61,748 nucleotides of DNA, filler included, from Sphacelaria rigidula (GCA_964200075.2; 7 parts of 7 records of this genome joined end to end with filler, not necessarily neighbours in it); one strand, 5' to 3'; positions 10,929 to 57,369 are shown, counted from the whole stretch's first letter. The notes: generated from the sequence alone by a model not told the origin. Numbers and translations are program-made.

Positions 10929-11045
10929 GACACTTCCTACGATAGCCCCCCCCCCAAAAAAAAAGTGCATGGTTTTGGGAGGCAAAATCTTCACGTAAAT
11001 TGAAATGGGAAAAGCCGAGCACAACGAGAAGCTTGGAATTCCCAC
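10929..11045 (+). mobile_element. Partial (one-ended) copy of the MULE-like MITE at 44587
   Basis: GACACTTCCTACGATAGCCCCC..GGAGGCAAAATCTTCA..AATTGAAATGG..CGAGCACAACGAG matches 44587-44700. Confidence 0.75.
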
Positions 11046-17672: not shown

Positions 17673-17728
17673 AGGGATGCGAGGTCAATGGTCTTATGAC
17701 TATGGCAGGCATGATCATGAGTACACCC
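17673..17728 (+). mobile_element. Diverged 3' part of the poly(C)-tailed short element (5' end lost in gap)
   Basis: AGGGATGCGAGGTCAATGGTC..GGCAGGCATGATCATGAGTACACCC matches the family, closest to the 35797 variant. Confidence 0.65.
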
Positions 17729-17789: not shown

Positions 17790-19600
17790 TCGCACGGCGA
17801 CCACAAGTCCCGACGTCATCTCTCTTCGTGACCTCCCGCTCTTCCGCTCCATTCCCACGCGTACATCACCAAAGACGATAGCAATCGCAAGCTTGCCCTT
17901 CTTCATAACGTCCTACTCATCCGCTCCAACTACTACGCGCATCTCACCCAGGGCGACAACAGATCCCAACTTTGTCTTTCTTCATGATGTCTTGCTCTCA
18001 CTACCACACGCACACCACCCAGGGCGACACCAGTCGCAAGTTTGCCCTTCTCCATGACACCCTGCTCGTCCACTCCTGCTACCACGCGTACATCACCCAG
18101 GGCGACCACAAACCTCAAGCTCATCCTCCTCCATGACCGCCCGCTCATCCGCTTCCACTACAACGCGTGCACCGCCCAGAGCGACAACAAACCCCAAGCT
18201 AGTCTCTCTTTACGACGCCCCGTTCATCCCATCCCACTATCCCCTGTGCACTATCTAGGGCGATAACACATCCCAAGCTTGTCCTTCTTCATGTCATCCT
18301 GTTCATTTGCCCGCACTTCCACACGCATACATTGCCGAGGGCGTTCATCCATTCCCCCACCCTAATGTACATCGCCCATAGCGAGCACCCATCCCGAGCT
18401 CGCCTTTCTCCATGTCGTCCCGCTCACCCGCTCCCACTCCCACGCGTTCACTAACCAGCGCGAATACACATGTCAAGTTCGCCCTACTCCATGACGTCGT
18501 GCTCATCCGCCCCCAGTACCCCCGTACACTATCCAGGGCGACAACACATCCCAAGCTCTTTATTCTCTATGCCGTCCCGTTGATTCACCCCCACTACCAC
18601 ACGTGACCACCACTCGGGGTGACAACAAATCCTAAGCTCGTCTCTTTTCCTGACCTCCCGCTCATCCGCTCCTCCTCCCACGCATACCCTCTCCGGGGCC
18701 ACCACGAAGCCCATGCTTGTCCTACTCCATGATGCCCTGCTCATCCGTCCCCAATATCACACGTGCGCCACCCAGGGTGACAGCAGATCTCAACTTTGTC
18801 CATCTCCTTCCGTTCATTCGCCCCCACTACCGCACGCGTACACCACCTAGGGCGACCACAGATCCTAAGCATGTCTCTTTTCGTAATACCGTGCTCTTCC
18901 GCCCTCCTTCCCTCGCTTACATCGCCTAGGGCGACCACGAATCCGAAGCTTGCAAATCCCTATGACGCCTCCTTCATCCAACCCCACTACTACACATAAA
19001 CTATCGCCCTTCTCCATGACATCTTGCTCATCCGCCCTCTCTACCACGCGCACATCATCCGGCTTTACCCTAAATCCCTGGCTAGTCAGACTCCACGAGG
19101 TCCTGCTCATCTGCTCCAGCACAACGCGCACACGACCTAGAGCGACAACAAATCCTAAGCTGGTGTTTCATTATGAGGTCGTGGTCATCCGCCCCCACGA
19201 CCACGCGTGCACCGCCCAGGTAACCCCAGCTCGTCCTTTCCGATGACGTTTCGCTCATCCGCCCTCACTATCTTGCGAATAGTATCCAGGGCGACCACAA
19301 ATCCCAAGCTTGTCTCTCTTAATGACCTCCTCCTCATTCACTCCCACTACCAAACACGTACACCGCCAAGGGCGAGAACAAACCCCGAGCTTGACCTACT
19401 CCATGACGTCCCACTCATCCGCCGACACTGCCATACGCGCGCACAGCCCAGGGCGACAATACGTCACAAGCTTGTCTCTCTCCGTGACGTCCCTCTCATC
19501 TGCCGACACTACCACAACCGGGCATTCTCCAGGACGGCAACAAGCCCCAAGCTCGATTTCCTCCACAAGTAAGCCCCCCTTCCCCCTCCCCGTTTCCACC
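17790..19600. repeat. Degenerate ~79-81 bp tandem minisatellite, about 22 units
   Basis: Recurrent CAGGGCGAC(A/C)ACAAATCCCAAGCT..CATGAC..GCTCATCCGC..CACTAC..CGTACA. Unit anchors at 17950, 18021, 18099, 18178, 18257, 18338, 18457, 18535, 18616, 18695, 18774, 18849, 18928 ... 19369, 19450, 19531. Confidence 0.92.
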
Positions 19601-21170: not shown

Positions 21171-22257
21171 CCACTGCCAAAATATTCCATTCCAACTGCT
21201 GTTCCAGTCTGCTTCATCGTCCATAGGTCAATCAAGTGAGGGCCAACGCACACAACGCCACACTCTCCGTGTGAGAGCAGGTGATTTCTCGATTAAGAAG
21301 TATGTTAACACCCGTGCGGGGCATGTGCGCAGGGGTCACGTACTGCTGTCGGCCGTCCATGTGTTACGATCACGTCATCAACTTATTCGATGCTCACCAA
21401 TCGCCACCCCGCGTCCAAACTTCCAACCTTGCTCTAAGCCGAACCTGCCAACTAGTAAAGGATCTGTATCTATGCATATGGTGATACAATATTGTCTTGA
21501 GTTCCCCTGCTTCATGTTTCTTTTCTACAACCATACCACCAAGTAATCGATATGTTAGGACGCCCACCAACAATTACCACCACCACAACCCCGACTTTTC
21601 AACTCAGGCGGTGCATGCCTCAGCATATGAAACACTCATGTCCACCACGGCGGCAAATACAGGCGCCAAACATCATACTGCACTGCTTGGGAGAAGAGGC
21701 ATCTTCCGGGCTACCCCCAGCACCGAGCTGAACACCGATCGACGACGTGGTAAAGCGACGGGCACAGGGGGTGGGGGAAGGGGGCTCCCGTTGCTGCATT
21801 TTCCTCTCTTTCCTCTATCATCAATCAAGCGCGAGTGTAATCCCTTGACTGCTCGGGTGTGTCAATCTACTAAATCAACGTCACATTCACGTTGGAAACT
21901 AAATTTGGAAAATGGCTGTCAGATTCAGGCGTCCATCCGCTGGCGCCGAAAGGGTTGGCCTTTCCGTCGCCTTTCCCGGGACGAGCACGCGGTCTCAAGG
22001 GCCAATCCATGCGCCCACCTCTTCACCGATGGACACGGTGGGGCGAGAAATACGCGAGGGGGGGGGAGGGCTTCGAAGTATCCGTGCGTCTACCCCCGTG
22101 TCATCTGCCTTCCTGAGTGCCTTAATAATGTACCGTCTTTATTGAACTATTTCCCCGGAACTTGCCTTGCATTTTGCTTCCTTTCAAGATGATTGAATCA
22201 GCACTACTACCCGCCACCCGGCTGTTCTTGATTTTTCTCTCCCCCCTCCATACCACA

Positions 22258-22336
22258 CCATGCTCCGTCTCGAAAGGGATGCGTGGTCAATGGTCAAACG
22301 ACCAAGGCCAGCAACACATGAGAACGCCCCCCTCCC
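22258..22336 (+). mobile_element. ~80-nt poly(C)-tailed retroposon-like element with 17-bp TSD
   Basis: TGCTCCGTCTCGAAAGGGATGCGTGGTCAATGGTCAAACGACCAAGGCCAGCAACACATGAGAACG followed by a C-run. CCCCCCTCCATACCACA is directly repeated at 22241-22257 and 22337-22353. Confidence 0.85.
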
Positions 22337-24081
22337 CCCCCCTCCATACCACATATCCTTCTCATGCTTTTGAACGATCTGGTGAAACAAAAACAGGGCG
22401 TATATAAACATGTGTGTGCGCGCGTAAACACAGCGCTACTGCGCGAATAATATAGAATAGTGCAGGGTACGGAGATTAAGAATGAGGAGGAGATCATCGT
22501 TGCCGTCTAAGGTATTGTACAACTAAAACGGCTTTCATGCGCACTAAAGTATTCCGACGGAGAGACCGGTGGGACAATATTGCCGTTGTGTCTCTTGAAA
22601 GACCTGTTTCCTTCACGAATTCTAGGCCAAATAAAAAAAAAAGACGCAAGAGTTATCCTAGCAGTGACCACTATATCACTCTGTACAGGGTCAACAACGT
22701 CGTATGTTAGCATGTGTCGATGCTTAGGTCCCGCTCGGTACTATCTACTGTAGTGCGGTGAAGAACGCACAGGTTGCGAGAGCACTGATCCAATGCTCGA
22801 TATCGGGGTGTCAGGCAGGTACACGGGCAGATAGAAACCTTGGCTGATTGCTGGAGTCTACGCACCCATCACGAGGAAGCGCACGGGGGGCCGTTGAAAG
22901 TAGAATCTGAATACATGAACACATGGCAAAGATTTACAGCCTGGTTCGTGCAGTATCAGTATTGCAAGCTGGCTCCCGAGTACCGGTCTACCTGTCGGTT
23001 ATTCGCATACTAAGGTGCGCTGTCGGTAACCTGGCTAGTCCTGCCAGCGGTTGGTGGGGGAGGGCTTCGAGTGCCGGAGGTTTCATGTGAATGGGGTCGT
23101 TTCCATGTCGATGCTGCGTAAATCGTGTCATGTGCTGCACTCCGTTGTTGTGGGAGGTCCTTGTACGCTGTGCGAATTCTCATGTGACGGAAAAAAAGTC
23201 GTGCGCGTGCAGGCAGTAACGTATGGAAGTGCCAAACGTTGTAAAGTAGCACATTGCTGCACGGTATAGGGTACTTACTGTACTACCTCTTGAAACCGCA
23301 CGTTGTATTACAATCCCAGTACACTACAGCACAGGACATGGTTGGACCGTCGAGCAGAAAAAATGTCACTGTACAGTGCCATGCGAGCAATACCGCCCTC
23401 GATTTGTTTTTCGCCAGCGGGGTGCTTCCGTTTATTCACCTCGAGTACTTACCTGCCCTCTCTCTCCCCCCTTGGCCACGACTCACGACTCGATTATAAC
23501 TCTCAACTCTCTCAATCGATATATCAAAACGCGGGTGCGAACACTTGTTAACAATAAGACAATGGGCAGAGTCGACAGGACTGCAGTACTTACTCGTAGC
23601 CAAGAACTCAACCAATCGACCAACCAACTCCTCGACTAACCGACCAACCGATCTATTTCGCGTCGAGACTTACCGTCAGAGTCTGCGTGTGTGCTGGTAG
23701 CTCAACCTTCGCCTCCTGAACTTTCCCCCCAGCAAGGGGTCATTTCACCAGGTCCACCATGTACCCTCTTGCTCGCGCCTCTGGGTTCGAACCTCTCTTC
23801 GGTGTTGCCTGTATAAGCATTTACTTACACACACGAATATAGACGCCATTCATTTACGACAACAACAAAAAACAGCGAGTTACTTGTTCCAGCTCAAATG
23901 AACTTCATCTAAGCAAAAGCAAGATGATACATGATTTGTCTGCTGCATACAACACCACCTCAACCGTCCGACAAAAAACATCAGAACACACAGCAACATT
24001 TCGTCGTCCCATATTTCAGGCTTGCTCGAAAATTATCGTCACCATCACCATCATCCATTATGGGTACCTACCTACAACTTT

Positions 24082-24445: not shown

Positions 24446-25315
24446 TTTTCCTTCTCAGTCCACTATGCCGTTCTGTTGTACCTTTTCTGTGTTCTTCTCG
24501 TTTTGTGTTAAGCGAGTGTTTCAGTTTTTTTTCATTTCGGGTACGTGCGTCTATCATGTGACCACGACTGTATCCCTGGGGAAGTCAGTCAAAGTGAGAC
24601 AATCAACCAACCAACCACTCAATCAATCATCAGCTAAAAATTACCGTCCCGTGCTACTCTCCAACCACCGATGGAAAAAGACACATTGGTCATTGATCAG
24701 CAAAAGAACCGAAACAGATGAAGCGAATCAATCCACGACACACGCCACCCTTGAGAGAAACTAATGTGGAGGATGAAGTAAAAAATAATAAAGTGAATCA
24801 ATCACCTCCTGAGACCCGTGGGAAATCCTGTCGTCGGCGACTTCGTCCTCTCCCTCCTCCTCTCATGCCCTCGCTCCCCCTCTCCATCAAATACACCAGT
24901 GCCCCCCCTACTTGAACAAGGGAACCGATCCACCACAGCGGTGGGGACGGCGGGGGCGCACAAGAGGAGAAGAAGAAGAAAAGTGAAGAGAGAGAGAGGA
25001 CGGAAGTGTAAGGCGTGTGGTACTCAGAGTTCAGGGACATAAGAGAAGAACACAGGAGATCCGTAGCTTCATGACCTCAGTGGTTGACAGAAATACGAAC
25101 AAAGGGAAAAGTAGACCAAGAGATACAATGCAACTACGTTGACGTGTGACGTTTTCAATTTCGTCGATCATGGCTCCGTATCTAATGAACGACCTCATAT
25201 GACGCAACTGAAAGCTAGCCCAAGAATGTGCTTAACAGGTGCTTCACATGACCCCATCTACCAAGATCCTGGAGCGTACCGCGCGTCAGAACAATCCAGA
25301 TTCGTCATACGGTCC

Positions 25316-25350
<35 letters not shown>

Positions 25351-25699
25351 CCCCCCCCCCCCACCCCCCCCNNNNNNNNNNCCCACAATGCCCCCCTCTC
25401 CCAAGATCCTGGAGCCCCCCCCCCGTCAGAACAATCCAGATTCGTCATACGGCCCCCCCCCCCCCCCCCCTCCCTTGACGGTTGCATCGCCTCAGGACGT
25501 GAACGTTCACTATCTCAGCGTTTAGTTTTTGAAACAAATAGAGAAAGGGGAGAGGTTATCATGTCAAGTATTTGAAAAGAAATAGGGAAATAGGGCAGCT
25601 CTCAGCGGTTCCCAACAATCGGTTGTACCGGCGTTGTTGTGTCGGATAACTCCACGGTTGGGACGAAAAAAATCATGATTCAACTCATATTCAACATCT

Positions 25700-26150: not shown

Positions 26151-26639
26151 GGCGCGCCTCTTCGGTGGCGCGGTCCTTTTGCAGGTAGGGTGGGCAAATA
26201 AGAGCAAACAGATCCCGAACCCCTCAAGAGCCAAATCCGCAGTAGACTCAGTTTCAAATTTGTACCAACACCTAACACATCAACTACAGCACAATACACG
26301 CGTCTGCGTGGCCAGCGCGTTTTTTTCTGGGCAGTTCGCCGGCCACCTAGCGATTAACTGCTCCCGTACGAACGCGAGCTTGGGGCGGAAGAACTTGAAA
26401 CAAATAGGNNNNNNNNNNNNNNNNNNNNNNNNNNNNNNNNNNNNNNNNNNNNTTAATTAATTAANNNNNNNNNNNNNNNNNNNNNNNNNNNNNNNNNNNN
26501 NNNNNNNNCGCCCACATGAGAGGCGTGTAGCAGTCCGAAATCAGCTATTACGCCCAAATGAGTCGTGTCGTGCAGCACGAAACCAGCTCTAACGGCGTTA
26601 CTGATCATCCCCTCCGTGCACTTTTTTAGCCGATTCGGG

Positions 26640-28795
26640 GGGTGGCTATCTCGGCAACAGTCATACTGTGCGAGATTTCTCTGCCGGCTTTTCGGTGGAT
26701 AATTCCATGCAGAGCTCCAGGGCCGCGTGGACTACCGTCTACCATCGGGTCTTAGTTGCCTTGGGTCTATATCTGGACCAAGGCGCGCAACTTCCGGTGG
26801 CAGACCCGCATGCTCTGACGCTAGCCCAGCTTGTGGCACGCACCCAAACGGGCCGCAACGATGGTGCCGACAGCTACAACAGAGCCACTCATAGCCTTAT
26901 GTAAGCCTTGCAAGACGCGTTTCACTCCGGTACCTCCACTGATGACGACAACGACAATGACGATGACGAATGGACTCCGGTCAATGCAAACTGTCGGCCG
27001 CACAACAACAACGGCGACAATGATGACCGCCAGGGTGGCGGACGCGTGGGTCGCCGCCACGGTTCCGGATCCTCCGGTGGCGGACGCCGAGGATCTAATT
27101 CTTGACGGACGGTCGGCAGCAAACAGTACCCAAATTGGAAACGTTCGGGATCTGGCTCGTCGGACAGCTCGTCCCGCAAACCCCGTAACCGGAACGAGTC
27201 GACGACTGATCCGCCGTCGGTCAACTCTATCAATGTCAGGCGAGAAACCCCTCGCTTAGCTGATGTTTCCCGCGAGTTATTAGGTTTGTCTGGCATTGAT
27301 GACAAAGATCGACCTTAATCTTCGACCTCGGCCCGCACTTTAGCTGCCGCCGCGGCTAGCCAAGCACAGACCGCAGCCCGCGAGGCTGCAGCAGCTGCTA
27401 AGGCTGAGGCTGCTCGGGTAGCTGCTATCCAGAGAGAGTACATACAGATAGATGTTAAGAAACTTTGGCATATTAACACCATGCCCATAGCGGACAATGA
27501 GGACTCAGGACAGTTTACCTCGAGTCTTATTCACTCCATTCGTGGTACTGTACACAATATTCTGCAGTTTGCGGATCGCACGGGTGATCAGCGCTATGAA
27601 AATCCCGTTTGGGTTCATGGTTGGCAGACGCCGTTACATAAGGCCCTACACCGCGCCATCTCTCGCCGCTCGCCTGACCTTGCCTCTTCACTGACGCAAA
27701 TCATCAATGGGTCCATCGCAGCGATGGATTCGGACCGTGCCTTGGGGCGAACTGGCCCAACGATACTCCGTGATTTGGAGCGGCGTTTGACCGACTAGTT
27801 CGATCGTAGTACCGAGGGCAGCTCCACTCAGCGACTAAGCTCGTCTGGTGTAGCCACGGACGTGCCTTTTTCCGACTACCTTCGTCAGTTTAAGTTGTTG
27901 GCTTCCAGAACTTTGAGAACTGGACGCCAGAGCGGCCCTTCTGATTCTACGTGTCAGTCTTATGTCCGTACGAACGTGTCTCAGCAGTCCCCGGCATTGA
28001 TGCCGTCGTTATTTCCGGGTGTCCTAGCACACCGCGAGGTGCCGTACGCCTCCGTGGACGCAATGTGGACAGCTTTTGTTCACCAAGAAAGCAATCTCAC
28101 TCCCGCCATTGGGGGTGATAAATATTTGTCTCCGCGCTCACAGCCTGCCACTGTCTCCTTCGCGAACACCTACGGGTCTCGCGGACGGAATTCGAGTTCA
28201 TCTCGTGCTACATGGACCCCCGCCTCTGTCGCCGGTTCAGTAATGAGTACTAGAAGTAACAAAGACCCATTCTGCGCATTTTGACGCATGGCCGTACTCT
28301 GAGAAGACATGGGACGATGTTTATCTGACTTCTACAACAGCTTTTGTGACGGATGATCCCCATTTGTGAAACCCGCTTCTGTCTTCTTCGGCTAGACACG
28401 ACGCTTTCAGCCGCCACGCCAATAAATATATCAATTACAATGTACAAGGCCGCAGCATGTGTGACTGTGACAACTCATGCATAAGCGCATTCGATCTCAT
28501 GAACTCTGAACTACAGGTCAATAAACCCGCGTGGCGCCGATGGCAGAAACGAATGCGCGACTATCGTACTCCAAATCGTAATGATCACCACCATTCGAAT
28601 TCTCGCGGCAACTATCGCTTTAATCGAGAGCGCCGACACAACAACAACCATAGTTCTGGCACTCGCCAACGAGATAATACTTCTCGCGCCAATCATGGTT
28701 CCGCTGATAGACACCAGCGAACGGGACCGACACATAGCTCGAACTCCAACACCAGAAACCCTGTTACCTTCACTTTGAATCGCATAAATCCATGA
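26640..28795 (+). pseudogene. gag: gag-like ORF1 of the Gypsy element (disrupted)
   Basis: ORFs 26668, 26908, 27481 and 27862 share one frame separated by single stops (..VATDVPFSDYLRQFKLL..), followed by a frameshifted Cys-containing segment. Assigned mainly by position upstream of pol. Confidence 0.7.
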
Positions 28796-29899
28796 CGCGC
28801 CAACGTCGGCGTCCTAAAGTCTTCGGCACCGCCGACAGCACTTTCGAAGACTTTTTCATCACAGCCCGCGAAACTAGCAACAAATATTTCTCCCTCAGTC
28901 CCCCCGGAATTTTGCAGCAGCACAACTGACGGCCGCTCGAATCTATCCCCGTCTTCACCTCTTCGCATACAGCGTGATAGGAGCACTAATGACAGCCGCT
29001 CGAATCGACCCCCGTCTGCACCTCCTCGCATACAGCGTAACAATTGCGTGAACTCACGACTTAGCTCTACGCTCGGCTCTGAACTTGCTCCTTCAGAACT
29101 GAGTGTAAATCTGAGGTGTGGGAACACCGGCCGCCCGTCCCTGAAACAAAGGCTTCCCTCAGCGACAAGTAGTGCATCTCACTCAACTGGTTCAAGTGTC
29201 GCTGGTCTCAATTTGACCACTTCGGGCCAAGTAACACCCACCTAGCTCGAACGAGATCGTTCTTCGCGTTTATTACACCACGCGAGAGTACCCCTGATAG
29301 GTTTCAAGAATAAGCGTCCCGATTCACCAACGCCTATGACTCCTTAGCCAAGCTTGCCAACGGAAAGTCCACAAGCTTCGCCCGAGCATGCCCCGATGCT
29401 GACCCCATCCACACGGCTGGACGCAGTCGTGTTGCCCCAACAAGTTTGGAAGTTCCCCGACCATCGTCACGGCGAAAGAGGAAGCCCCGTAAAGGTGCCC
29501 CCAAGGAAGCGCGCGCATCATCACGCACACCTCTTTCGAGTGGAAAACCTCTACCTCAATCTCTCCAAAATGCGACGACTTTACGCTCGACGGCTTTATC
29601 AAGCATCACGGGAGAAGCGAATTCACATGTTTCTGACGCCACTGCTTCTTCAATCGACGGCCCTTACAACGCACAATCTGGATCCACCTTGGATGTTGAT
29701 CTCTGCGTACCCAAGACGGTCATCTACGAAATCGCTAAGGATCATTCTAACCGTGCCTCACCTGGGAATCATATACCGTCCACCACCTTTTCTGGTGAAA
29801 AACCTGACCCACCGGCGGATCACTGCCCGTCCGTTTTTGCTGTCAGCCCCGCCGATCCTGACCAATTTACCTTGCCGAAACATGGTCCGGATCTTGTCG

Positions 29900-32800
29900 G
29901 CGGTAAAGTGTCTGTGGACCCGACCACTTTCACTACACGCGTCGCGATCCATTAGGGTCCAAACGCTACCACGCCTACGAAAGGCATATCTCTGTTGGAT
30001 AGCGGCAGCCCGCAAACGTTCATTCGACAGTGAACATGGAAATACATGAAACAAACTGGCGCTGCTACCGCACCTTGTGACACCACCACCCAACCTCGAG
30101 TATGGGGCGGCTTCGGCGATTCTACCGCACCTCTGACAACATGAAAATCCGTACGTCTCAGTGTGCAATTGTTTTACAATACCACTCGTTCTGCCAGCCT
30201 GGCCGTCTGGGCATACATTTTCCCCGACAGCACCATGCATCACGTCATATTATTGGGCAGAGATAGCTGTATGCGGTTTGATAAGCAAACCTACCGCACA
30301 CTTCCACCACTATCACCACAATCCACGTCTCGAGGAGAATTTAACCTTTACCACTTTGGTACACCCCACGGTGCTCTGACCTACCAAAAGAATACTCAAG
30401 CAACCGGAGCTGTTTCCCACCTACGATACAATGGTAGTGTTGGTATTACCTTCTCCGACGATCCTCAACTTTTAGAAGTTGCGCTATGGGATGCCTGCCC
30501 TTACGGGGCATTATCTTGCCGAAATGTAACCCCGTATAGGTGCACCAGCCGACACAGAACATTTTGTCTCGGCGGGACAACAACTTCTCCCTCTCACGGG
30601 ACATGCTAACTTGGAACCCGGCGATATTTTAGGAATCGTCGCCGCTCCCCTGATGCACATCCCACTTGAGAGGTGCGTAACGGAGCCTGCCGAGTCCGAC
30701 GCACAATCTCCGACGGAGTCAGTCCATTGTGTCGATGAACCTTTTTTCGACCTCGCCTCCGAGACTCCACCCCAGATCCACACCGTGGATCCTGCCCAAT
30801 CAAATTCCGATCCTCCTGCTCAAGTGCTCCAACGCTTATCACCAGATTCTCGGAAGAGTTTCTTGCAAATGTGGAACTAACTGCCGCCACACATGCGTGA
30901 TATCAATTTTGACCTTCATTGGCCCGGCTGGGAACCAGCAGTCATCCAAGAACTCAGTGATATCCTGCTACAGTACCAAGACCGATTATTCAGATCCAAA
31001 ACGGATCTTGGGCACTGCAAAACGCTGCTCTTTGAGGTTACACTCCAACCCGGGGTCTCGCCAATATCGTCGCGACCATACCGGACAAACCCAATCCTTA
31101 CCAAAAGAGTGAATGTCATCTTAGATGCATATTTGGGAGCGGGATTAAGACAACATTCCTCTTCTCCGTGAGCCTCGCCACTTGTGATCGTCCCCAAAAA
31201 GGATGAAAACAAACGCATACCCGTGATCTACCAACGGTTGAACCACGTCACTGTGATTGGTAAACTTCCGATCCCCCGCATCGATGAAGTCTTCGACTCC
31301 TTAGGCGAAGGAAAAATATTCAGCACCTTCGACCTCGCTTCTGGATTTTTCCAGAAAGCTATACACCCTGACACAGTCGCACTCACGGCCTTCTGTACCT
31401 CGTCCGGGCTCTACAAGTGGCTTCGAATGCCACAAGGCGCGGCCACTGCCCCGGGATGCTTTCAAAGCTTAATGCCACGCGTCACCGAGGGCCTCGAGCA
31501 CATCATCATGTATCTCGACGACGCCATCGCTTTCGCTGCCTCACCTATTGCACACAGCCGCACTCTACGAGAATTTCTCTCTCGTTTACGAACACATGAC
31601 TCGAAATTGTCTCCATCCAAGCTCGCCTTGGTGCGACTGACTTGGACTTCCTGGGACATTTCATTTCGCCAGTAGGCCTACATCCGGATACAAACGAAGT
31701 CAAGGCGATGACTGACTTACCGATGCCCGCCAACATTTCTCAACTTCGCTTATTGTCGGGCGGACTATCCTACTACCGAAATGTTTTGCCTAATTTATCC
31801 AAACGAATTTGCCCCCTTACTGAGCTACTCAAGAAAAGAGCCGTGTTTACCTTCACCATCGATATGCAGAATATCACCCGCGAATTGCTGAAAACGCTCA
31901 CCGAAAAACCGGTACTCTGTTTCCCTGATTGGGGGGCAGTACAAGATGGCTCTCGCCTTTTCCAACTACACACTGACGCCAGCACAGACGGATTTGGAGG
32001 AGTTTTGAATCAACTACAGGTTGACGGCTCCATTCGACCCATCCTCTACATCAGCCGCGCCACCCTGCCCAACGAGGCCAACTGGAGCCCGCTAGAATTG
32101 GAGAGCGGAGTAATTACCTGGGCCATTAAGCGCCTCCGACAATATCTGTTTCACGTGCCATTTGAGATCTTCACGGATCATGGGGCACTCGGACAACTCG
32201 CCAAGCTTGGCGAACACAACCCGCGTGTGCAATGATGGTTGACATTTCTAACAGCGTACCAGTATACCGTGAAGCACCATCTAGGCAAAACCAACGGAAA
32301 CGCTCACCTGCTTTTCACCCCTGCCGCCTACGGCCGCAGATTTCAGCCCGGTTTGCCGTTTAACAGACCCCGATGAACCTGGGATTTACCCTGTTGGACG
32401 AACTTCAACGCTCGTTTATGCCCTTGACCTACAGTGTCCAGAGACTGGTATGGACATGGGAGGACTTCGCCCTTTACAATATGACGCCGTCCTGGGTGGG
32501 TTAAAACCCACTCCCTCCGATTTTACCGATTCCCGCGCTTCTGGTACTCGCGCGAACCATTTCACGGAGACACCTTCGGTCATCCACCTAATCTCCGATA
32601 ACACGCGCTCCCAGTCTACCTCCGGCACCACGCCCCCGAGTGCCCCGCCGCCACCGATAACATCTACAAATCCCACGAGCCACACAGCACCGGTCCAACG
32701 GACCAGTAAGCAACGCTCCGCGAAAAATACTGCAACATCCACCACGCACCGCGATGAATCTTCGCCGCGCACTGCTACGACCCCGCCGCCCATAACGGCG

Positions 32801-35139
32801 CCGCCTCCAACTACCGCTCCCGAGCACAGAGCTGGGGACTCAGCTCCTGCTCCCGGGGCAGATATTGACGTCGGCATTTCTGCCCCGTCGCCTATTCCCC
32901 CGCTGCCAACCCCACCATGTTTGGTCGGCTCTCCAGCGGAAGGTCAACTACGCGAGTTCCTCGCCCGCTACTCTCACCGTGATTGGGCCCGCCAACAAAA
33001 CGCGGAACCTTTGTGTCGCGCAGCCATCCAGTACTTGCAGCTTGACTGCCCAGTCCCTTTTCCATCCGCCATCCTGGCCCCGGTTGGCACACTGCCACCC
33101 CCAGATACTTCTGACGTATACGAACTCGTGCGCAAAGGCACCACTTTTACTACGGTTGAAAACGTACAACTCCTCGTGCGCCGACCCACGCCTTTGACGG
33201 GCGCACTTTCCGTCGCAACCACGGGACGTCACGCACGACTACTCAATGACGAACCAACGCGCATATATGTCCCCTTATTAATGCGTCCCTGGGTCATGAA
33301 AGGCTGCCACACGGACTTGTCATGTCACCTTGGCGTCACTCGCACCTTAGCGCTCCTGGAACGCTTCTACTGGTGGATTGGTATGGAAATTTCCACCCGC
33401 TTCTAGAATCGGCGATGCCTCAAATGCCAAGCTCGAAAAACTTCACGACAAACAGTACGCTGGCCCGTCATCTCTATGGCACTCCCCAACGCCCCAGGCC
33501 ACCTTGTGTCCTTTGACTACTTTGGCCATCTACCAACCACAGATCGCGGCAACACTTACATGTTACTCTTCACTGACCGCTTGAGCCGCCACGCGTCCAT
33601 GTACGCGGTAACCGCTGTAGATTTCACTGCCGTCGGGACGACCGATATATTGGCCCACGACTACATTAAGTACTACGGTTGTCCGGAACGACTCCTTTCA
33701 TACAATGGTCAGCAATTTTGCTCAGATCTCTCTGATGAGCTTTACAAGCTCCTGGGCATCCGCAAAATTGCTACAAGCGCCTACCACCCTCATGGTAACG
33801 GTGGTACCGAAAGAGTTAATCACACCATGGCTCAGATGCTCTCTATGGCCGTCGATGACCGTCAAAATGACTAGGACCTACACCTCTCGCACATCATGCT
33901 GTCCTACAACAACTCGCTTAACGCCGCCACAGGCCTTTCCCCGAACGAACTCCATCTCGGATGCTACCGTTGGCTGCTCATCACCGTGTTTGAGCAACAC
34001 ACGTTCGACGACCACGAAGGATTAGATCCGGGCCAGATATCCTATCACGAGCTAGCACATTCACGACCACGCAAAGCGTTTATCCTCGTGCGCGAACAAC
34101 ATGCCATCAATGCCTCGTGCCTTGAGAGATCTAACACTGCTCTCTACAACCTCATACACAAACGCCCCAACTGGAAAGTTGGTGATTGAGTTTGGATCTA
34201 CAACAGTAGTTTGTCGACCATTCGCCAAGGCACCAGCAAGACAACCAACGGAAGAAGTTTGAAGACGAAATTGTCCCTCAATTGGGGAGGATCATTCAAG
34301 ATCCTGACAGTCGGACCATCGTCATCACCACCGGATGGTAAACCCGTTGGTGACAAATTGCTCTATATCTCGACTTGCCTCGCGACTTCCAGGGCAAGGA
34401 GACCATACCCGGCGTCTCCGTGCACAGATGCAAAACCTCCACGAACCCGCATGATACAAGTGACATGCCCAAGTACCTACCTGCCGAGCTCACATAGTAT
34501 GTTCTCAACAGCTACTCCACCAAGTCCCCGCCCTACCACGTTACAACAGACGACGTAACGGAACAGCCCCTCCGATTGACCGTGTCCACTATTTCCGGCC
34601 ATCAGATACCCTGTCGTGGTCGAGGTGGTCAAATCGCTGTCATGTGGAAGATGGACTGGCACGGTCTCCGGAGAGCGTCTTGGGAACGCAACTCCGACCT
34701 TTAACTGCACCGCCGTGCAATCCTCGTGTACTGGACGCAGTCCCAACATCAGCATCCTGCTCACAACAAGAAATATCGCAACATGCGTCGTGGCGCAGCA
34801 GCCTGCGAACTTCACCGCGATCAGGGACTACGCTTTGTCGCCGATGGTTACAAACGTGTACCCACCAAGACTTGTAAGACGAAGTTCTTCGCAAACCAGC
34901 GAATACTGCCCAAGGGCAGCTACCTTTGATTCAAAGGCAGCGACAACCTCTGGTGGTTGGGTCAGACCCACTCCGCTAACCTATTTTCGGCCGACACATA
35001 CATCGTGCGCTTCATCGATGACCCTGGACCCATACAGCTCGAGCTCCGGCCAGCACTATATACCACCAGCCCATCTGCACCACGCGGATCCTGGTGCCTC
35101 CAACACCTCAATCCCGAAGGACTTCGCCGCGATCTCTAG
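29900..35139 (+). pseudogene. pol: pol polyprotein remnant: aspartic protease, RT, RNase H, integrase, GPY/F-like region, chromodomain, extra C-terminal module
   Basis: LLDSGS at 29992-30009; SRPYR and FSTFDLASGFFQ; RMPQG; YLDD at 31511-31522; LHTDASTDGFGGVL and ELE (RNase H); H..H..CLKC zinc finger; SFDYFG, TDRLSR, NGQQF, NGGTERVN (integrase core); ISGHQ..W.G..SWE..DL at 34591-34701. Confidence 0.95.
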
Positions 35140-35404
35140 CGCAACATCGACCACACCCACGATGTCCACTCCCCGTTTTGAACCACGCTCCTTCGTCGCA
35201 ACTGTTGCCCCCCCCCCGCCCCCCCCCCGCCCCCCTCCCCCCCNNNNNNNNNNNNNNNNNNNNNNNNNNNNNNNNNNNNNNNNNNNNTTAATTAATTAAN
35301 NNNNNNNNNNNNNNNNNNNNNNNNNNNNNNNNNNNNNNNNNNNTTGTGTGTTGTGCGCGGGGGGGGTGGGGGCGGGGCCGCGGCCCCCCTGGGGGGCGGG
35401 GGCC

Positions 35405-35490
35405 GGGGGGGGGGGGGGGGGGGCACACTTATTTGTCGCTTGCCTTCGTCATTTTGAACATTGACCACGCATCCCTTTCGAGACGGAGCA
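35405..35490 (-). mobile_element. Poly(C)-tailed short element copy
   Basis: G-run followed by CACACTTATTTGTCGCTTGCCTTCGTC..ATTGACCACGCATCCCTTTCGAGACGGAGCACCG. TSD cannot be assessed next to the gap. Confidence 0.8.
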
Positions 35491-35796
35491 CCGTTCCTCC
35501 TCCTAATCGAGACACCTCAATCATTGGGGCGCTCATTACGTGTCTTTCATGCGCATTGCACAAAAATCATTCATCCACCTTATGCCTTTCCTGGTTCGCC
35601 GTCTGTGGTCATCTATCTCCTAGTATAGCGATCGTTTTTTCGCTACTGTCTCATGTCCCCAACGATTTCATGACACATTCGTTTACTTCCCACATTGCCC
35701 CCTTTAACACGTCCTGTTCCTCCTCGTATAGTTCACACTTTGCCACTTCGCCCTTGGGGCAATTCTGTGCATCTAATTCCTCTGGGTGTGTGTGTG

Positions 35797-35880
35797 TGGG
35801 GGGATACTCGCGATCTTGCATGCCGTCATCATCATGACCATTGACTTCGCATCCCTAGAAGCCGGAACGGAGCACGTCGG
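35797..35880 (-). mobile_element. Diverged poly(C)-tailed element variant
   Basis: GGGGGGATACTCGCGATCTTGCATGCC..GACCATTGACTTCGCATCCCTAGAAGCCGGAACGGAGCACGTCG. Confidence 0.65.
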
Positions 35881-36103
35881 GTTTCCGCCAACCGGGGTGG
35901 GGGGGGGAGGTAGGAGGGTATGAAGGAAGAAATAGTAAGAGATGAAAACATACTTCAAAACATGAGGCCTAAATCGTGCGGCCTTGCGAAATAACTCATG
36001 ATATTCATTGTTTTCAGCCAATCATCCCTGCGATTTTGTTTTCTCCCCTTACTTTCGTGCGTCTGGCTACCTGTAGCCGCTTGTGTTGCGCCCGGTAGTG
36101 TTT

Positions 36104-43778: not shown

Positions 43779-44198
43779 TGCACGACATTCATGTGGATCA
43801 TTGACCTGGTTCGAGGCGGTCATCTTCGGTTTTTTGTGCTACAAGCTGGTTCAGATTGAACGCACAGAATTTTGACCCCGGGAATTCCTCACGCCGTTTT
43901 TCCGAGTTAGACCACGAAATTTTGCACACATATTCTGGAAGGCAGTGTCTTAAACTTGAAGAGTTTTTATTAATTCATTTGGGGCTTCGCTCTCGAGATA
44001 GCCGGGATCTGACCCCCCGCGCCCGCTCGCGCCCGGCCCAGCCCGCCGCCAACGGTGCCGCGCCGGGACCCGCGCCCCNNNNNNNNNNNNNNNNNNNNNN
44101 NNNNNNNNNNNNNNNNNNNNNNTTAATTAATTAANNNNNNNNNNNNNNNNNNNNNNNNNNNNNNNNNNNNNNNNNNNNGAAAATGACTGAAAATGATG

Positions 44199-44586: not shown

Positions 44587-44845
44587 GACACTTTCTACGA
44601 TAGCTCCCCCCCCCCAAAACGTGACTGGTTTGAGGAGGCAAAATCTTCATGGAAATTGAAATGGAAAAAGTCGAGCACAACGAGCAGGTGGGAGTTCCCA
44701 CTCTTGGGCTCGTTCTCGCCGATGTCGCCCATATGAGGCGCTTCATGCAGCCTGAACCCAAACATCAGGTGCTGTATGACCATTTGTTTCATGGCACTTT
44801 TGGGCTGGTTCTGGGGGGGGGGGAGAGGCTATCGTAGAAAGTGTC
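44587..44845. mobile_element. 259-bp MITE with 18-bp TIRs, MULE-like
   Basis: GACACTTTCTACGATAGC / GCTATCGTAGAAAGTGTC. Flanks TTTTGTTTT and TTTTGTGGT could be a 9-bp TSD with 2 mismatches. Confidence 0.8.
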
Positions 44846-46601: not shown

Positions 46602-49600
46602 GAATCGTGCACAAGCTCGAACCTCCTGAGGGTTATTTTCGAGCAAAACACGGCATTACTTGAACTGGTGAGCAAGTTGTCCAGCGTATAGATCGGCAAG
46701 GAGAACGGTAGGGCACAGAAGTGGACGGAAGGGAGGGGGAGCTCCAGCTACTCACACTATCACCGTCAATATAACTGAATAGGGGTGTAGTGCAGACAAA
46801 TAGTGCACAAAGTTCGAAGTTTGCTTGATTGTTAGCAGATCAGTATCTTCGGCCCACCAAGACCCATGACAACATGGGCAGTTTCACCGCGGGTCATGTT
46901 TCCACCTGAGACGGGGTATAGCTATGAAATGAAGCCTGAGGGCGCATCTAGTGTGGGATAAGTGAAAGCTAGTATATCTAAGCAGCTGCCGGAACCCGAA
47001 CAAATGACTTAGTAAGCTCTAGGAAGGAGTCCGAACTTTAGGAATGAGTCCATGCCTGCAAATCACAACTCAGCAAACGGATAAGATGAACCTGAAAGCA
47101 TGGTAACGTCGCGCGTTCTGTCCTAAAACCCGATGATCGACACAGTACCGAGAAAAGTATCCCGATCATGGTTTGAGCACTCTGCTCTGCTATGTACGAC
47201 GCGGGTTCGCGACCGCTCGCTCTGTTTGTTTCGATTTCAGGTCTCGTCCCTTGAACGTAAAGCGGGCGTTGCGCCTAAGACACAGAATGCGTCGAATGAT
47301 CCGGTCAGCAGCGCAGCAGTCAAGCCGCTGGATCCTATGTCAACACTCCCGCCGTCGGATATTGCGAAGCGTTCCGGAAAGATCAACGCGGCAGCCGGAA
47401 CAGCAAAGGTATCAATGGCGGCGGCACAACATGCATCAGCTTCACGAACGGTAACATCAGCAACATCCGAGACGCCGCCCGCCAGTGGAGTAGGGGGACG
47501 TGGAACAGGAGGCGTAGGAAGTGCTGGAGAGGGAAGGTTGGTCTCGCCGTCTTCAGCTGCGGCTGCTGCAAGCACAACCTCACAACAGGTGCGAGCGATA
47601 TGTGCGGGTATGGGGGGGGGGGGGGGCGTCCCCATTTTTTGCTTGCCTTAGTCGTTTGACCATTGACCACGCATCCCTTTCGAGACGGAGCACCGTCGTG
47701 TGCGGGTATGGGGTGGCTGATCCGGGTGTTTTCGCGGCCGGCCTTTGCTGGAGTGTTATCGAGGCCTTACGGATGCCTTGACTGTTCGTAACGTGGACGA
47801 AGATTTTCAGGACAGAATGTTGCTTAAGAAAGTGTGACCACGCGGGGTAGTTCGTTCCCTAAGGCTTAGCGCCTTGAGAATTAGGTTGATCTGCATGGAA
47901 GTTGCATGTCTCCGGAAAAAAATCATCCCCAATACACGCCGCCATACTTCATTCAGGCACTACCCCGTACACTGAATATGGATCCTTACAAAAGCGGAAA
48001 AGCGCTGTACGGTACTCGCAGAAAGTATGCCTTGCATACTAAAGGTCTGAGACCTTTTGCAGGGATACCTACCTTTATACTTCATTTTGGTCCATCTTCT
48101 GTACGTTCTTTCTGCTACTCAGACGAGGTTTAAAACCGCGTTTCCCCCATGTACCTGGTGAGGGTACCTACAATGGTTACGAAGTTTGACTGCCACCGCA
48201 CGCAATCGGCAGTGAATTCGTGGTACGAACGTTTCCTAGTTTCCACCCTTGGAATGGTATGTTTGTCGGGTCCATACACCTCTTCCAGGTCCTGGTAATC
48301 CGCGTGTCGCTGTCCCGTTGAAACATAAAAAAGGTTCTTGGCACCGCCGCGCAAAGTGAAGCGTCCGCGACGTCGATTGCTTCTGCCGAATCAGCGGCAT
48401 CAAATCGTACACCTGACGACAGTTCGGGCGGGTCGGATCCGCTTCTTCGAAAACTTGGCGATATGGTAGATCAGATCAAAGAGGAGTTGGAGAATGCAAA
48501 GGTGGAAGTTTCCCATGTGGAGTCGGAGCTGCGGATGCTGAGGGAAGAGAATATATCGCTGGCGGGAAAGTGAGTGGCAGTGAAGCACGCGTCAACCCTC
48601 TCTTGCTGATGGGGTACAATGGTGATCTCTATTCGCGCCTCGTGAGAATTCTCAATAACCACGGATAAGGCACTTGCTGCGGGCGGTTTTCGACTTCGAA
48701 AATGTTGAGCCAAGGAATGTCGTTGCCATAATGTCCCGACGTAACGCATACACATCGGCAGGATGGTATCGGGAGAATGGCATTCATACTCGCCGATTAG
48801 AGTGCCGTAGGATTGCCAGTATGGATATGACGTGTCTTGCAGCGCACATATAAAGAAGCGGTGCAGTTTGGAGGTGGATATGCTCCCCGCAGCCTTCCTC
48901 GCCAGTTTGTTGTTTTTCACATGGACCAGTTGTCGCCTTTCAATTGAGCTGGCTGGCCAGCATAACATGTCTGGTAGGTTTCGAATTGTTTCATGTAGCG
49001 ATGACGTCTTACCCCCAACATATCTTCCTCGGGTACCCAGTATACCACTTGCTTTGCTGCTATGAGCTGGGATCAAAAACGTCTATTTTGTTTTTGCAGG
49101 TTGAGCGTAGGCAGGAAGGAGACGGCTTCCCTGCATGCTCGCCTCGAGGCGGAGCGGGAGAAAAACAAGGCGATTTCTCAAGCTAACATTTCGTTACAGA
49201 GGAAACTGAAACAGCAGCAAGAGCTATCTCGACAGGGAGCCCAACAATCACTCAAGGTATCGCCTAGGCCTGGTGCCCCCCCTGGCCAACAAGAATCCAA
49301 AAGTATCAGCTTACAGCAGCAAAGATCGTTTCAATCTCCGCAAAATCAGCAACTTTCGTCCCGGCAGCAAACACAGCAGCAGCAGCAGCAGCAGCAGCGA
49401 CAACAACAACAGCAACTGCAACCGCATCAAGCTCAATCACAACAGCAACAGCAACCGCAACCGCACCAGGCTCAGCCCCAACAGCCCCGACTACAGGTAC
49501 AACAGCAGCAACGACCAGATCAACATCAGCGGCAAAACGTGTATCCAACAAGTTCCAGTCCTGCTGACACTATTGGCCAAATGCCAAGGGGTGTGCCGGG

Positions 49601-52843: not shown

Positions 52844-52913
52844 TGTAATGCGTGAGAGGACCGCGTGCTTAGAGGACCGCATCGGAATTTGAACACCCCT
52901 GTGGTTAGGGTTA
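52844..52913. mobile_element. Left end of a GTGTAATGCG-TIR MITE running into a gap
   Basis: TGTAATGCGTGAGAGGACCGCGTGCTTAGAGGACCGCATC followed by GGTTAGGGTTA. Confidence 0.75.
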
Positions 52914-53081
52914 NNNNNNNNNNNNNNNNNNNNNNNNNNNNNNNNNNNNNNNNNNNNTTAATTAATTAANNNNNNNNNNNNNNNNNNNNNNNNNNNNNNN
53001 NNNNNNNNNNNNNAGGAGAACACTGTTTTAGGCTTGAACCTCATCTCGGAGTTAAACCTCAATTCGCACAATTTGTTGTTA

Positions 53082-53366
53082 AATGAGATTTGAGGAGGCT
53101 AGCCAGTATGCGACAACAACCCGAAGGAAGTACCATTCGCAAGTGCCTCCGATCATTTGGGGGGGGAGGGGGGGGGGGTACTCATTTGTTGCTTGCCTTA
53201 GTCGTTTGACCATCGACCACGCCCCATCTCGAAAGGCCAGTAGTCAAACGACCAGGGCAGGCAACAAATGCGTACGCCCTCCCCCCCGAAAATGATCGAA
53301 GGCACTTGCGGACGGTACTTCCCTCGGGTTTTTGTTGCATACTGGCTAGCCTCCTCAAACCTCATT
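53082..53366. repeat. ~285-bp palindrome centred on two inverted partial poly(C)-element copies
   Basis: AATGAGATTTGAGGAGGCTAGCCAGTATGC.. is inverted against ..GCATACTGGCTAGCCTCCTCAAACCTCATT; inner arms are G-run+TACTCATTTGTTGCTTGCCTTAGTCGTTTGAC and its complement. Confidence 0.85.
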
Positions 53367-53399: not shown

Positions 53400-56300
53400 T
53401 TATCAGCTCACTAGCGTTTTGAGGACGTCGCATATTGCTCAAACCTTGAATACGGACAGGATCATACGAAACAGTTCCCATGGAGTACACCGTACCACAC
53501 CACACCACTTCACTTGCGAAAAAAGTACACTTATGCGCAGCGACGAACAGACCAACACTTTCCAAGCGGCCAAGGATTTCAAGCAAAGCTAACAGTGCTT
53601 CTTCGGTTTCAGCAAAATAAAAAAACGTCATCCACCCACACTTTACAATCCAGACCTCGCAAAATGTCAGTCAACACACCTTGGAAATACGCCGTGGCGT
53701 TCAACACGCCCTGCGGAACATGAGTAGGCGTAAACAAACCGTCCGGTGACGATCGTGAAGATTTCCTGAGCCTCCGGTGCCAGAGACACCTGCCAATACC
53801 CCTGGAGCAGGTCCAACTTGCCGAAGCATTGGGCTCCCAGCAACTCCCTCATGTTCTTGGCTTGGCATCACTCCCGGAGACTGTTCCACTTGGGCGTTCA
53901 CCGCCTGATAGTCGCTGACCAAACGGAATGTGTCCCTTTTCGGCACCACCATCGCCGGACTCGCCCACACAGCCTGGATGTTCCTCACCACTAAATCAAA
54001 CACCACCAAAGCTGCGACGCATGAGGCAAGCTACCCGGTCTTCCCCGAATCGTACCGTCTGTGCTTGGCCTTCACCGCATTTGCCTGGGGTTTAAGCTGC
54101 ACTCTCATGGGCTCAACGCGCGCTGGCGGATCACCACGCAGCGCACGGCGAAAGGTATCCACGCGAGGAGCCGAAATATCGCGTAGACAATGTGCGCCAT
54201 CGGCGCTCGGGCCCTTTTGCTCGACCTGCCGCACACTATCCTCAAGCGCACGTTCTCGTGGACCTCTCTCCTCTGCTGGGCCCATGAACATATCCGGCTG
54301 CCGATCGACCCAGCGCTCTACCGCTTCATCAGCAGAAGCCTCCTCCTCATTGGCGCTCTGGAATGACCGTATGGATACGATCACACGCGTTGCAGCAAGA
54401 TAGATGGGATTTTCCACGCCGGTTTGCACCGGCACAGCACGCGGACGTAACTTCTCCAACGCCAGCGGGTATGGATCACCCCCAAGCTCCCTCATTGTCC
54501 CCATCCCAAATAGAACCACGTTGTCCCTGCCGGGCATGACAGCGAACGTAATGGGCTGCAACTGCACAGCCCCCCACGGCGTACGCACGCTAACAGTAGT
54601 AATCGGCACCGTTTTGTTGGTAACCGTCACGGGAGCACCCGTGGCGGTCTGTGCCGTTTGCGGTCCGTTTTCGAACGGAATCTGAAGCTGAGCGCTGCCA
54701 AACTGCGAAGACATCTGTTCTAGCAACCCCACACCGATCGACGTGAGCGCAACCCAGAATCCAGAATAACGCGGGCCATGAATGACCCTACAGAACCAGG
54801 CGAGGATAAATCTGCGCGTCAGCATTCAGCCTTGCGATTGACAGGTACCACGCCTACCGAAGATCCCTGTTCTGTCCCAAGAGTCACCTGACGTCAGGGC
54901 TGCTCTCCAGCACTTGGCATCGATAGCTGCGAATCGTCGGTCCCTCCAGGCTAAGTTGCCGAACATGCAGACGGCGCTGTTATAGCCGTCGCAGCAATAG
55001 GGAATGCGCCAGACACGGATCCTGCCTCGCTGAGGGGTTGTGAGCTATTCGCTCCATCACTCCCAACCGAAGTATTTGCATTTCCCCTGTACACTGTCTG
55101 CCCCGCTACGGACGAACGATAAGATCCAAATGTCACCACCTGATGACGTAGTGGAAGAAACAGCAGCGGAGATACCACCATCCGTCGCCGATTGCTTGCT
55201 ACCACGGCCGCCGCGCCCGCGTGCCTGATTGGCACGGCCCCGTCCACCGTGACGACCGCCCCGAGATCCTGATAAATCTCGTGCATTGCCCTGTGCCGCG
55301 CCTTGAGCGCGAGGCTTGGGGCAGTCCTCGACCATATGTCCGGTGTCGCCGCAGTTGTAACACGCGCGAGTGGACGACTCTCGCAAAGACGGCTCCTGTT
55401 TCTGTTGCTGTTGCTGTTTGCGTCGCATACCGCCTGCACTTGTTGCAGAGCCGCGCCGGCCATGTGCTTCAATGAACTTCCACTGGTCGGCCGCCTCAAA
55501 TATTCTTGTGAACATCACCGTCAGTTTTTCTTTCCAGCCGTCAACAGACGTTAGTACACTTTTAACATACGCCTTGAATTCCGGGGGCGAAATATCGTCC
55601 ACCAAAGCTATGGGAACCGACTCGGCCGGGCCTGGCAACCAACTCCTGTCTTCCGCACGGTACATGATTTGCACCAAGAGGTTCTCTGCAAAAAACCTTT
55701 CCATATATGTACTGACCATCAGAGCACGATCCCTGACAGTTTTCCCCCCGTTTTGCTTCATCGTAAGTACCCTACGCAGGTCTTCTGCAGCCTGCGCAGC
55801 GTCATACGTTCCACCGGTTGTAGTATACCCGGCATGCTGCTTCACAGCATCAAGCAATTCATCGCGGGTCATAACCCGACCGTCCTTGTACATGTCTTCG
55901 AAGCAGCGGTGAATGTAGACAGGAATGAGTTGCCCTATGCTAACTCTCTCATGCCGTATTATTCCTTCTGAATTCGCTAGACTCTACCGCTGTATGTATT
56001 CAAGCTATCTTGCGAGAAAAACGCGTGATGCCTCTTTTGTCCATACTTCTCCATACTTTGGCGGCTGCGGTGGCTCACCTAACACCAGAGGCGCCGCCGC
56101 CGCTTGAGCCATGTCGTCTACGCTTTAAACACTTCACGGAGAGACTCTTGCCTGACTTGTGCGTCCTCCAGCTCACTTGGCGCCCCCCTCTGCTGTGCGC
56201 TTCAAGTTTGTCGCCTCCTGTCTGTGGGCAAAACTGGCTTCAAGCTGCTGCCCAACTTTTCTCCTCAGCCAAAACTCTTCTAACAGAGTACTGGAAGAAT

Positions 56301-56400: not shown

Positions 56401-57369
56401 CTCACTTGTTATTATCACCGAATGATCCTCAATAGACCACATCAAGAGCCAGACAGCAAGGGGCCACACAGATGAGGGTCATCAACCCAGGATCCTCTGT
56501 CCCCTGCGACTGCTCCAATCATGCATGCGATTGTACTGAAACCTATCGCTTGGTATCATTTAGCTACAAGCTATTTCACTATCTCCTAGACCGCGAGGGT
56601 AGTCCATCTGGATCGTGCATCCCTTTTTCATGTGAAATCGATGCCGACTCAACAGATGACCTATTCTCGCCATCTAAGGGTTAACAGGCCCCCACCCCCC
56701 CCTCAACACCCCCCCCCCCCCCCCCCCCCCACAAACCCCCAAAATTCCACTGCGGAAGCCACCAACAATCCCNNNNNNNNNNAGTGGACAAAACACTTCA
56801 CCTTTTCGCGCCACGTAAGGGTTCACCGCCCCCCACCCCCCCGCCCACCCCCCCCCCCCCCCTCCCCTTGAAAAGCCCCAGATGTTTCCGGATTGTTAGC
56901 AGTCGAAATGTCGTCTCCAGGAAATCTCACAGGGCCATTATAGCATATCTCACAAGTGTAGTCTTGAGGTGATATGGGGCCAGTGGCGAGGACCTATTAA
57001 TAACACTCATATTCAGCAATCAGCCATGTACTACTACTACTGCATTTCATTTGCGACAGTGGGATGATCGTGACGTGAGACTAGGTATAATGATTTTGTG
57101 GCTGTTGTATAACATTATTGACTTACGTTCGAAGACCTCAGGAACAGATGTCACACGTAGACAGATCGCACCCTGTAGCACGTGCTGCACAGGGTTCTTC
57201 GCAGTCTTTGTGAAAACCTCTGAACAGCATTTGCAAACCCTAGTACTTCTACCAGCATTTTGTGTAGCGTTTTTCTCGAGACCCTGTTAGCAACCCTGTA
57301 GAGAGGCACTCCCAATTTGAAACGTACACATTTTTTGGTATAAAATCTATAAACTTACTTATTTTGAGA

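Follow-up and report, generated by a model that had tools for sequence, protein, structure and literature searches.

A poly(C)-tailed repeat of about 80 nucleotides in Sphacelaria rigidula DNA corresponds to the 3' end of a LINE that encodes an endonuclease and a reverse transcriptase

In a stretch of 61,748 nucleotides from Sphacelaria rigidula (GCA_964200075.2; hereafter, the window), a unit of about 80 nucleotides is found several times, each time followed by a C-rich run. What is this unit, and how is it copied? An earlier note on this DNA had described it as a self-standing element of the retroposon type, primed at G-runs by a reverse transcriptase (RT) that it did not name. The unit is instead the 3' terminus of a long interspersed nuclear element (LINE) encoding an apurinic/apyrimidinic-type endonuclease (APE) and an RT, and this terminus matches the short copies at 92-95%. 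It is very probable that the unit is the end of this autonomous LINE, and that the copies in the window are its 5'-truncated insertions, made by target-primed reverse transcription.

The nature of the unit is revealed by relatives outside the window. A degenerate 21-nt pattern taken from the conserved core of the unit was scanned over metagenome contigs and over contigs of 'prokaryote' genomes. Three of six pattern loci in the metagenome contigs (L002, L003, and L005) and one of three in the genome contigs (L009) are true matches; the other five (three metagenome, two genome) are alike over the 21 nt alone and were dropped as chance. In the four true loci, similarity runs past the 5' end of the unit and through the whole contig (1.0, 1.2, 3.8 kb), and the contigs are 87-95% identical to one another.

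In contig L002, an open frame of 1253 codons runs into the unit and ends there. The encoded LINE protein, P0035, matches RVT_1 (E 7.7e-33), Exo_endo_phos (E 3.1e-11), and Exo_endo_phos_2 (E 9.2e-07), and its best matches in the PDB are the reverse transcriptases of R2 and LINE-1 ORF2. Contig L009 has a complete frame of 1382 codons, stop to stop, followed by C13. The LINE is about 4.2 kb or longer. The product of its one open reading frame (ORF; about 1330-1380 codons) has an AP-type endonuclease at its N-terminus, an RT, and, close to the C-terminus, a Cys/His motif. No ORF1 was seen upstream of the long ORF in L009, a region that was not closely examined. In the frame of the LINE, the unit reads ...NGAPSRKGCVVNGQMTKASNK, a TGA stop, GTACG, and the C-run, so that it consists of the last 22 codons, the stop codon, 5 nt, and the run. 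Because the unit is the LINE 3' terminus, the short copies are LINE copies that lack nearly everything on the 5' side or, at most, a derivative limited to the tail. The search that the earlier note had suggested, for RT-encoding elements with the same 3' end, is thus answered by the L002 ORF, with its endonuclease and RT domains, and by the complete frame of L009. The RT that it invoked is found in these outside relatives.

The closest named proteins to that of the LINE are unnamed products of Ectocarpus sp. CCAP 1310/34 (58-71% identity), and its other named matches are distant animal proteins. The Ectocarpus matches point to a brown alga as the probable host. An Atlas search with the LINE returned generic APE+RT clusters only, and nothing was found when viral contigs were scanned with the LINE protein. 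L009 is a 5259-nt contig filed in a bacterial metagenome-assembled genome (MAG), and it consists of a full-length eukaryotic LINE, which looks like eukaryotic contamination of the bin. The rest of that bacterial MAG holds no second copy of the LINE. In addition, some 600 nt upstream of its ORF, L009 contains a relic of the 3' unit that is diverged and lies in antisense orientation.

The window is a composite of seven pieces of about 8.7 kb each, which are not contiguous and are separated by linkers of the form N44-TTAATTAATTAA-N44 (8737-8836, 17573-17672, 26409-26508, 35244-35343, 44079-44178, and 52914-53013); its G+C content is 51%. Because it is a composite, distances between different pieces are meaningless, and the joins mean that features at piece ends are cut artificially, as for the copy that begins at 17673. 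A 36-nt core of the unit has three matches in the window at up to three mismatches, where none is expected (100 shuffles). Sensitive blastn finds seven copies, labelled A to G, and these include all of the sites at which the unit had previously been reported to recur. The copies and their parts are as follows.

22248-22341, plus strand: copy A, extent by blastn
22241-22257, plus strand: copy A, 5' target-site duplication, CCCCCCTCCATACCACA, an exact 17-nt repeat of 22337-22353
22258-22326, plus strand: copy A, body; two extra nucleotides (CC), then the LINE 3' end with its TGA stop intact
22327-22336, plus strand: copy A, tail region; C6, T, and a C-run that runs into the 3' duplication
22337-22353, plus strand: copy A, 3' target-site duplication, CCCCCCTCCATACCACA, exact over 17 nt
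47601-47713, minus strand: copy B, extent by blastn
47699-47713, minus strand: copy B, 5' target-site duplication, in sense CCCCATACCCGCACA, an exact 15-nt repeat of 47601-47615
47627-47698, minus strand: copy B, body; two extra nucleotides (CG), the last ~22 codons of the LINE, then GGACG
47616-47626, minus strand: copy B, tail; C11 in sense, or C15 counting the C4 of the target
47601-47615, minus strand: copy B, 3' target-site duplication, TGTGCGGGTATGGGG, exact over 15 nt
35405-35782, minus strand: copy C, a decayed, 5'-truncated LINE copy of ~375 nt with a C19 tail (35405-35423)
53162-53232, minus strand: copy D, 3' part with C-rich tail, by blastn
53235-53287, plus strand: copy E, 3' part with C-rich tail, by blastn
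17673-17728, plus strand: copy F, diverged 3' part with CCC tail, by blastn; the 5' side is lost at the piece start
35797-35882 (blastn 35784-35882), minus strand: copy G, an old short copy, ~68-71% identical, with a C6 tail followed by (AC)n

The body of copy A matches the L009 LINE at its 3' end with 92% identity, and in tblastn, 17 of 18 residues are identical to amino acids 1235-1252 of P0035. The body of copy B has 95% identity to the same end of this full-length LINE and 73% identity to amino acids 1228-1253 of P0035 (tblastn); its LINE stop codon is mutated from TGA to TGG. Copy C, whose blastn core match to the unit spans 35409-35494 (minus strand), includes the last ~125-140 codons of the LINE, with stops and a frame break. 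It is 78% identical over 340 nt to L002 and L009 (blastn), and 40% identical to amino acids 1112-1253 of P0035 (tblastn, E 2e-17). Copy C starts directly downstream of the C6(AC)n tail of copy G, and copy G begins at the same point of the LINE as copy B. The copies inside and outside the window thus form a size series of ~80, ~375, at least 1000-3800, and ~4200 nt or more, with one shared 3' end. Copies A, B, and G (~80 nt) and copy C (~375 nt) are insertions of the LINE 3' end that are cut at the 5' side.

In all 11 copies (seven in the window and four outside, from five assemblies), (G)AGTACG is followed at once by a C-rich run, with which the copy ends. The tails are as follows.

Copy A (window): C6, then T and C9 merging with the target
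Copy B (window): C11, then C4 of the target
Copy C (window): C19
Copy D (window): C11TC8
Copy E (window): CCCTC7
Copy F (window): CCC
Copy G (window): C6
L009 (outside): C13
L002 (outside): C8
L003 (outside): C11GC5
L005 (outside): CCTC7...

The C tail is also carried by the outside contigs, which come from other assemblies, and so an artefact of the present assembly is ruled out as its source. The exact lengths of C-runs in the window are untrustworthy, because two N10 gaps fall inside long C-runs.

Target-site duplications are found in both of the two copies that have both ends clear. The lengths reported earlier, 17 bp for copy A and 15 bp for copy B, are exact on re-examination and differ between the copies. 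As also observed previously, each duplication opens, in sense orientation, with a C-run (C6 in A and C4 in B) that merges with the tail. Runs beginning with CCCC start at ~440 places over both strands of the window, or ~0.4% of positions, and we estimate the chance that two of two targets open with a C-run at ~1e-5. Within each locus, the two copies of the repeat are identical, whereas the A and B loci differ from each other. Copies A and B are therefore independent insertions into merely similar sequence, and paralogy of the two is ruled out. In both, the top-strand cut falls between CACA and TATC (22257/22258 in A and 47698/47699 in B), and CCATAC is present in both targets.

The window was also screened for direct repeats that are exact, at least 12 nt long, not of low complexity, and 30-1500 nt apart. 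The screen yields 63 pairs, nearly all within tandem arrays. Three pairs of at least 15 nt were seen outside such arrays: those of copy A and copy B, and a pair at 22062/23056. The last is an exact 15-nt repeat, GGGGGAGGGCTTCGA (22062-22076 and 23056-23070), that encloses 979 nt including copy A, and it may be a duplication from another insertion or a product of chance.

The C-run tails, the variable lengths of the duplications, and the opening of both targets with a C-run support target-primed reverse transcription, the route that the earlier note had proposed. We infer that the LINE inserts in this manner, and that its C tail is primed on G-runs. The endonuclease would nick the bottom strand immediately after a G-run, on its 3' side (5'-GGGG^T in B and 5'-GGGGGG^A in A); the freed G-run would pair with the RNA's 3'-terminal C-run and prime cDNA synthesis. 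A cut in the top strand 15-17 nt downstream, after CACA and before TATC in both A and B, would then produce the duplication, and an early stop of synthesis or early joining would produce the 5' truncation. To our knowledge, the cell adds no C tails, and so the C-run must be copied from a master copy; slippage during this copying could give tails that range from C6 to C19. Old C tails might themselves be good targets, which would explain the position of copy C right behind the tail of copy G.

Several observations weigh against this reading. The endonuclease and RT coding sequence of the LINE is absent from the window (tblastn), in which only the last ~125 codons are found, in decayed form, so an active master copy in this genome is presumed. 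Priming of the C tail on G-runs is deduced from two insertions. No duplication is recognisable for copies C, G, D, and E or for the full-length copy in L009, and the base that follows the C-run is G in both L009 and L002, where a C-run target is not evident. The two target sites of A and B are alike beyond the C-run, with a score of 12 versus 6.6 +/- 1.8, and 81 of 5000 random pairs attain this value; a sequence preference of the endonuclease is therefore possible. The hairpins predicted in the 3' region by folding an alignment have compensatory changes in none of their 15 pairs; the fold of copy B as a single sequence is likewise no better than that of shuffles (z -0.27). Finally, copies A, B, and G start within ~3 nt of GGTGCTCC, and so does the antisense relic in L009; this does not look like random truncation, and B and G share a CG dinucleotide that is absent from the LINE in all five long copies.

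These last features would be expected if the ~85-nt copies are a tail-only retroposon in their own right, non-autonomous and with a constant 5' end (CGACGGTGCTCC...), which the LINE proteins copy in trans through the shared 3' end. This is possible, and we consider it somewhat improbable. At one place, copies A, B, D, and E agree on AAACGAC, whereas the long copies read AAATGAC or AAAATGAC; this also favours such an element, and passages of a study of Ectocarpus mention very short, abundant families that depend on LINEs (PMC12477816). However, the shared start is observed in only three or four short copies, whose starts lie within ~3 nt of one another, and copy A has CC, instead of CG, at its junction. 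Truncated LINE insertions often carry additional bases at the 5' junction. Moreover, the unit has no promoter, no head resembling tRNA, 5S, or 7SL RNA, and no Rfam match, and it is wholly LINE coding sequence. For these reasons (no tRNA, no Rfam match, and LINE coding sequence throughout), the unit is not a short interspersed nuclear element of the kind that has a head of tRNA, 5S, or 7SL origin with an internal Pol III promoter. The Rfam searches returned no match over the whole window at gathering thresholds, nor on the focal 201 nt at E values up to 10. The absence of Pol III A and B boxes noted previously agrees with these results, and no tRNA-like head was found in the unit.

The resemblance of the two targets could instead indicate a site-specific or strongly sequence-preferring element, for which a motif similar to CCATACC...CACA^TATC is recognized and the C-run is part of this motif and not a partner in tail pairing. 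Both the alignment of the two rebuilt empty sites, at the score given above, and the identical placement of their top-strand cuts at CACA^TATC favour such a preference. On the other hand, there are two such sites, the 3' flanks of the other nine copies are without such a motif, and A and B are independent insertions into sequence that is merely similar. This explanation is therefore unlikely, and 5'-truncated insertion of a C-tailed LINE by target-primed reverse transcription is preferred.

A third proposal, that the unit is part of a DNA transposon such as a miniature inverted-repeat transposable element (MITE) or of a long terminal repeat (LTR), and that the C/G runs are sequencing or assembly artefacts, is highly improbable and already contradicted: some C-runs in the window are indeed troubled (N10 gaps at 25372 and 56773, doubled flanks, and A-to-C differences), C10/G11 runs occur within the inverted repeats of a second repeat there, and a decayed Ty3/gypsy element is present. 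However, the unit has no terminal inverted repeats (TIRs), its duplications are of 15 and 17 bp, a LINE ORF terminates in it, and it is absent from the gypsy element; moreover, four outside contigs of other assemblies have the C-run after GAGTACG. A MITE or other cut-and-paste DNA transposon is rejected because no TIRs are found at the ends of the unit (by eye, as the earlier note had also seen) and because duplications of 15 and 17 bp are not short and fixed. An LTR fragment is rejected because the unit lies outside the Ty3/gypsy element (~27963-34785). Two of the observations named beforehand as refuting the earlier proposal, a unit within an LTR or TIR and duplications of fixed short length, were not found. 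The features of a LINE are present: a 5'-truncation series, duplications that vary in length, neither LTRs nor TIRs, and RT and N-terminal endonuclease domains, which come from the relatives outside and are absent from the window itself.

It had also been suggested that the element might explain the many C/G homopolymers of this assembly. There are 19 C/G runs of at least 9 nt in the window, and four of these are tails, or tail plus target, of this LINE family (22334, 35405, 47612, and 53168), so that the suggestion is only partly supported. Three (10946, 44606, and 44813) belong to the inverted repeats of another repeat, which is MITE-like, six lie at two sites of a gap with a duplication, and the remaining six (8915, 22058, 35208, 35219, 35899, and 46380) are without an assigned origin. 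A tblastn search with 121 LINE proteins found no LINE coding sequence beside any C/G run other than the four, even at E 0.5. At the two N10 gaps (25372-25381 and 56773-56782), the lead-in to the C-run is written on both sides of the gap, and its second copy has many A-to-C differences. The segments 25248-25474 and 56660-56870 look like assembly artefacts at real long C-runs; the reading of each as a paired "family" is rejected, and each is most simply one locus that is doubled around its gap.

The MITE-like repeat is found at 44587-44845 (~259 nt), with terminal inverted repeats GACACTTTCTACGATAGC plus C10/G11, so that the homopolymer lies within the inverted repeat. A related 5' part is found at 10927-11050 (82% over 100 nt). 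The run at 8915-8939 is a G25 (C25 on the minus strand) located 60 nt past the end of a 177-aa ORF on the minus strand, for which neither a Pfam family nor, among longer proteins, a homologue was found.

Copies D and E are arranged head to head at the centre of an imperfect palindrome of ~285 nt (53082-53366), the arms of which are ~88% alike and take in the C tails and ~85 nt of 3' flank. The palindrome is an inverted duplication of an insertion together with its flank; as a speculation, snap-back synthesis during insertion might have given rise to it. Directly downstream of copy F is a C-rich tandem array (17800-19510) of diverged ~79-nt repeats, present in 13-16 copies that are 60-80% alike. 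The Ty3/gypsy element (27963-34785, plus strand) is decayed, and its RVT_1, RNase H, and integrase (zinc-binding and core) domains are spread over several broken frames; its presence indicates a eukaryotic source. For the ORF of its integrase region (32285-33403), unnamed metagenome proteins match at up to 64% identity. A 308-aa open frame at 55060-55983 (minus strand) contains a gag-like CCHC zinc knuckle and is probably another retroelement remnant. The end of the sixth piece (52903-52913) reads GGTTAGGGTTA, two units of the TTAGGG telomere type at the cut point.

The element is a LINE of the APE type whose mononucleotide C tail is unusual, and what seemed to be an exotic 80-nt poly(C) retroposon becomes ordinary LINE biology with an unusual tail base. 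We tentatively suggest, as a possibility to which we give rather less than even weight, that a brown-algal (possibly also other marine stramenopile) LINE lineage has a templated C tail that is primed on G-runs and represents an undescribed class of tail, and that this lineage seeds C/G homopolymers, re-targets its own tails, and has spawned a promoter-less derivative of ~85 nt composed of the last 22 codons and the tail. Literature searches found no published poly(C)-tailed LINE, a weak negative, because the most direct wording brought up very few papers. If the C tail is confirmed genome-wide, it would provide a natural test of tail-to-target pairing versus endonuclease specificity in the choice of sites at which a LINE inserts; G:C pairs are stronger than A:T pairs, and as targets, G-runs are less common. 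In the annotation of brown-algal genomes, C/G homopolymers that adjoin ...GAGTACG can be treated as LINE tails. Long C-runs also break these assemblies, leaving gaps and doubled flanks, and the full-length LINE in a bacterial MAG is a small example of eukaryotic contamination.

Among known systems, mammalian LINE-1 has a poly(A) tail and an endonuclease that nicks at TTTT/AA. The present LINE resembles it in having an AP-endonuclease and RT in its ORF, with an RT similar to the solved LINE-1 ORF2p (E ~4e-21), and in its duplications of variable length, frequent 5' truncation, and homopolymer tail that is complementary to the nicked target end. In contrast, its tail is C and not A, its proposed primer is a G-run and not a T-run, and its stop codon lies 5 nt before the tail, leaving almost no 3' untranslated region. 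Whereas the poly(A) of LINE-1 is added by the cell, the C-run of this LINE must be copied from a template.

Stringent-type LINEs offer a second comparison. Passages of PMC3747384 describe 3' repeats that belong to the element itself, such as (TAA)n of the I factor and (TGTAA)n of eel UnaL2, and that are thought to slip in reverse transcription. The present LINE is like these elements in that a short repeat unit forms its 3' end and short derivatives share that end. It differs in that its repeat unit is the single base C, and in that its predicted hairpins lack covariation.

The LINE families of Ectocarpus are classified as CRE, RTE, RTE-X, and Unknown, and they are said in passages of a 2025 study to be abundant and often 5'-truncated and to be accompanied by very short non-autonomous families that depend on LINEs (PMC12477816). 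The main-text passages retrieved from that study do not describe 3' tails, and its supplementary annotation notes may already record C tails. Ectocarpus is the source of the closest named proteins, and 5' truncation, as mentioned in those passages, is a feature that its LINEs have in common with the element described here; the very short LINE-dependent families would be a second such feature if the ~85-nt copies are a discrete derivative.

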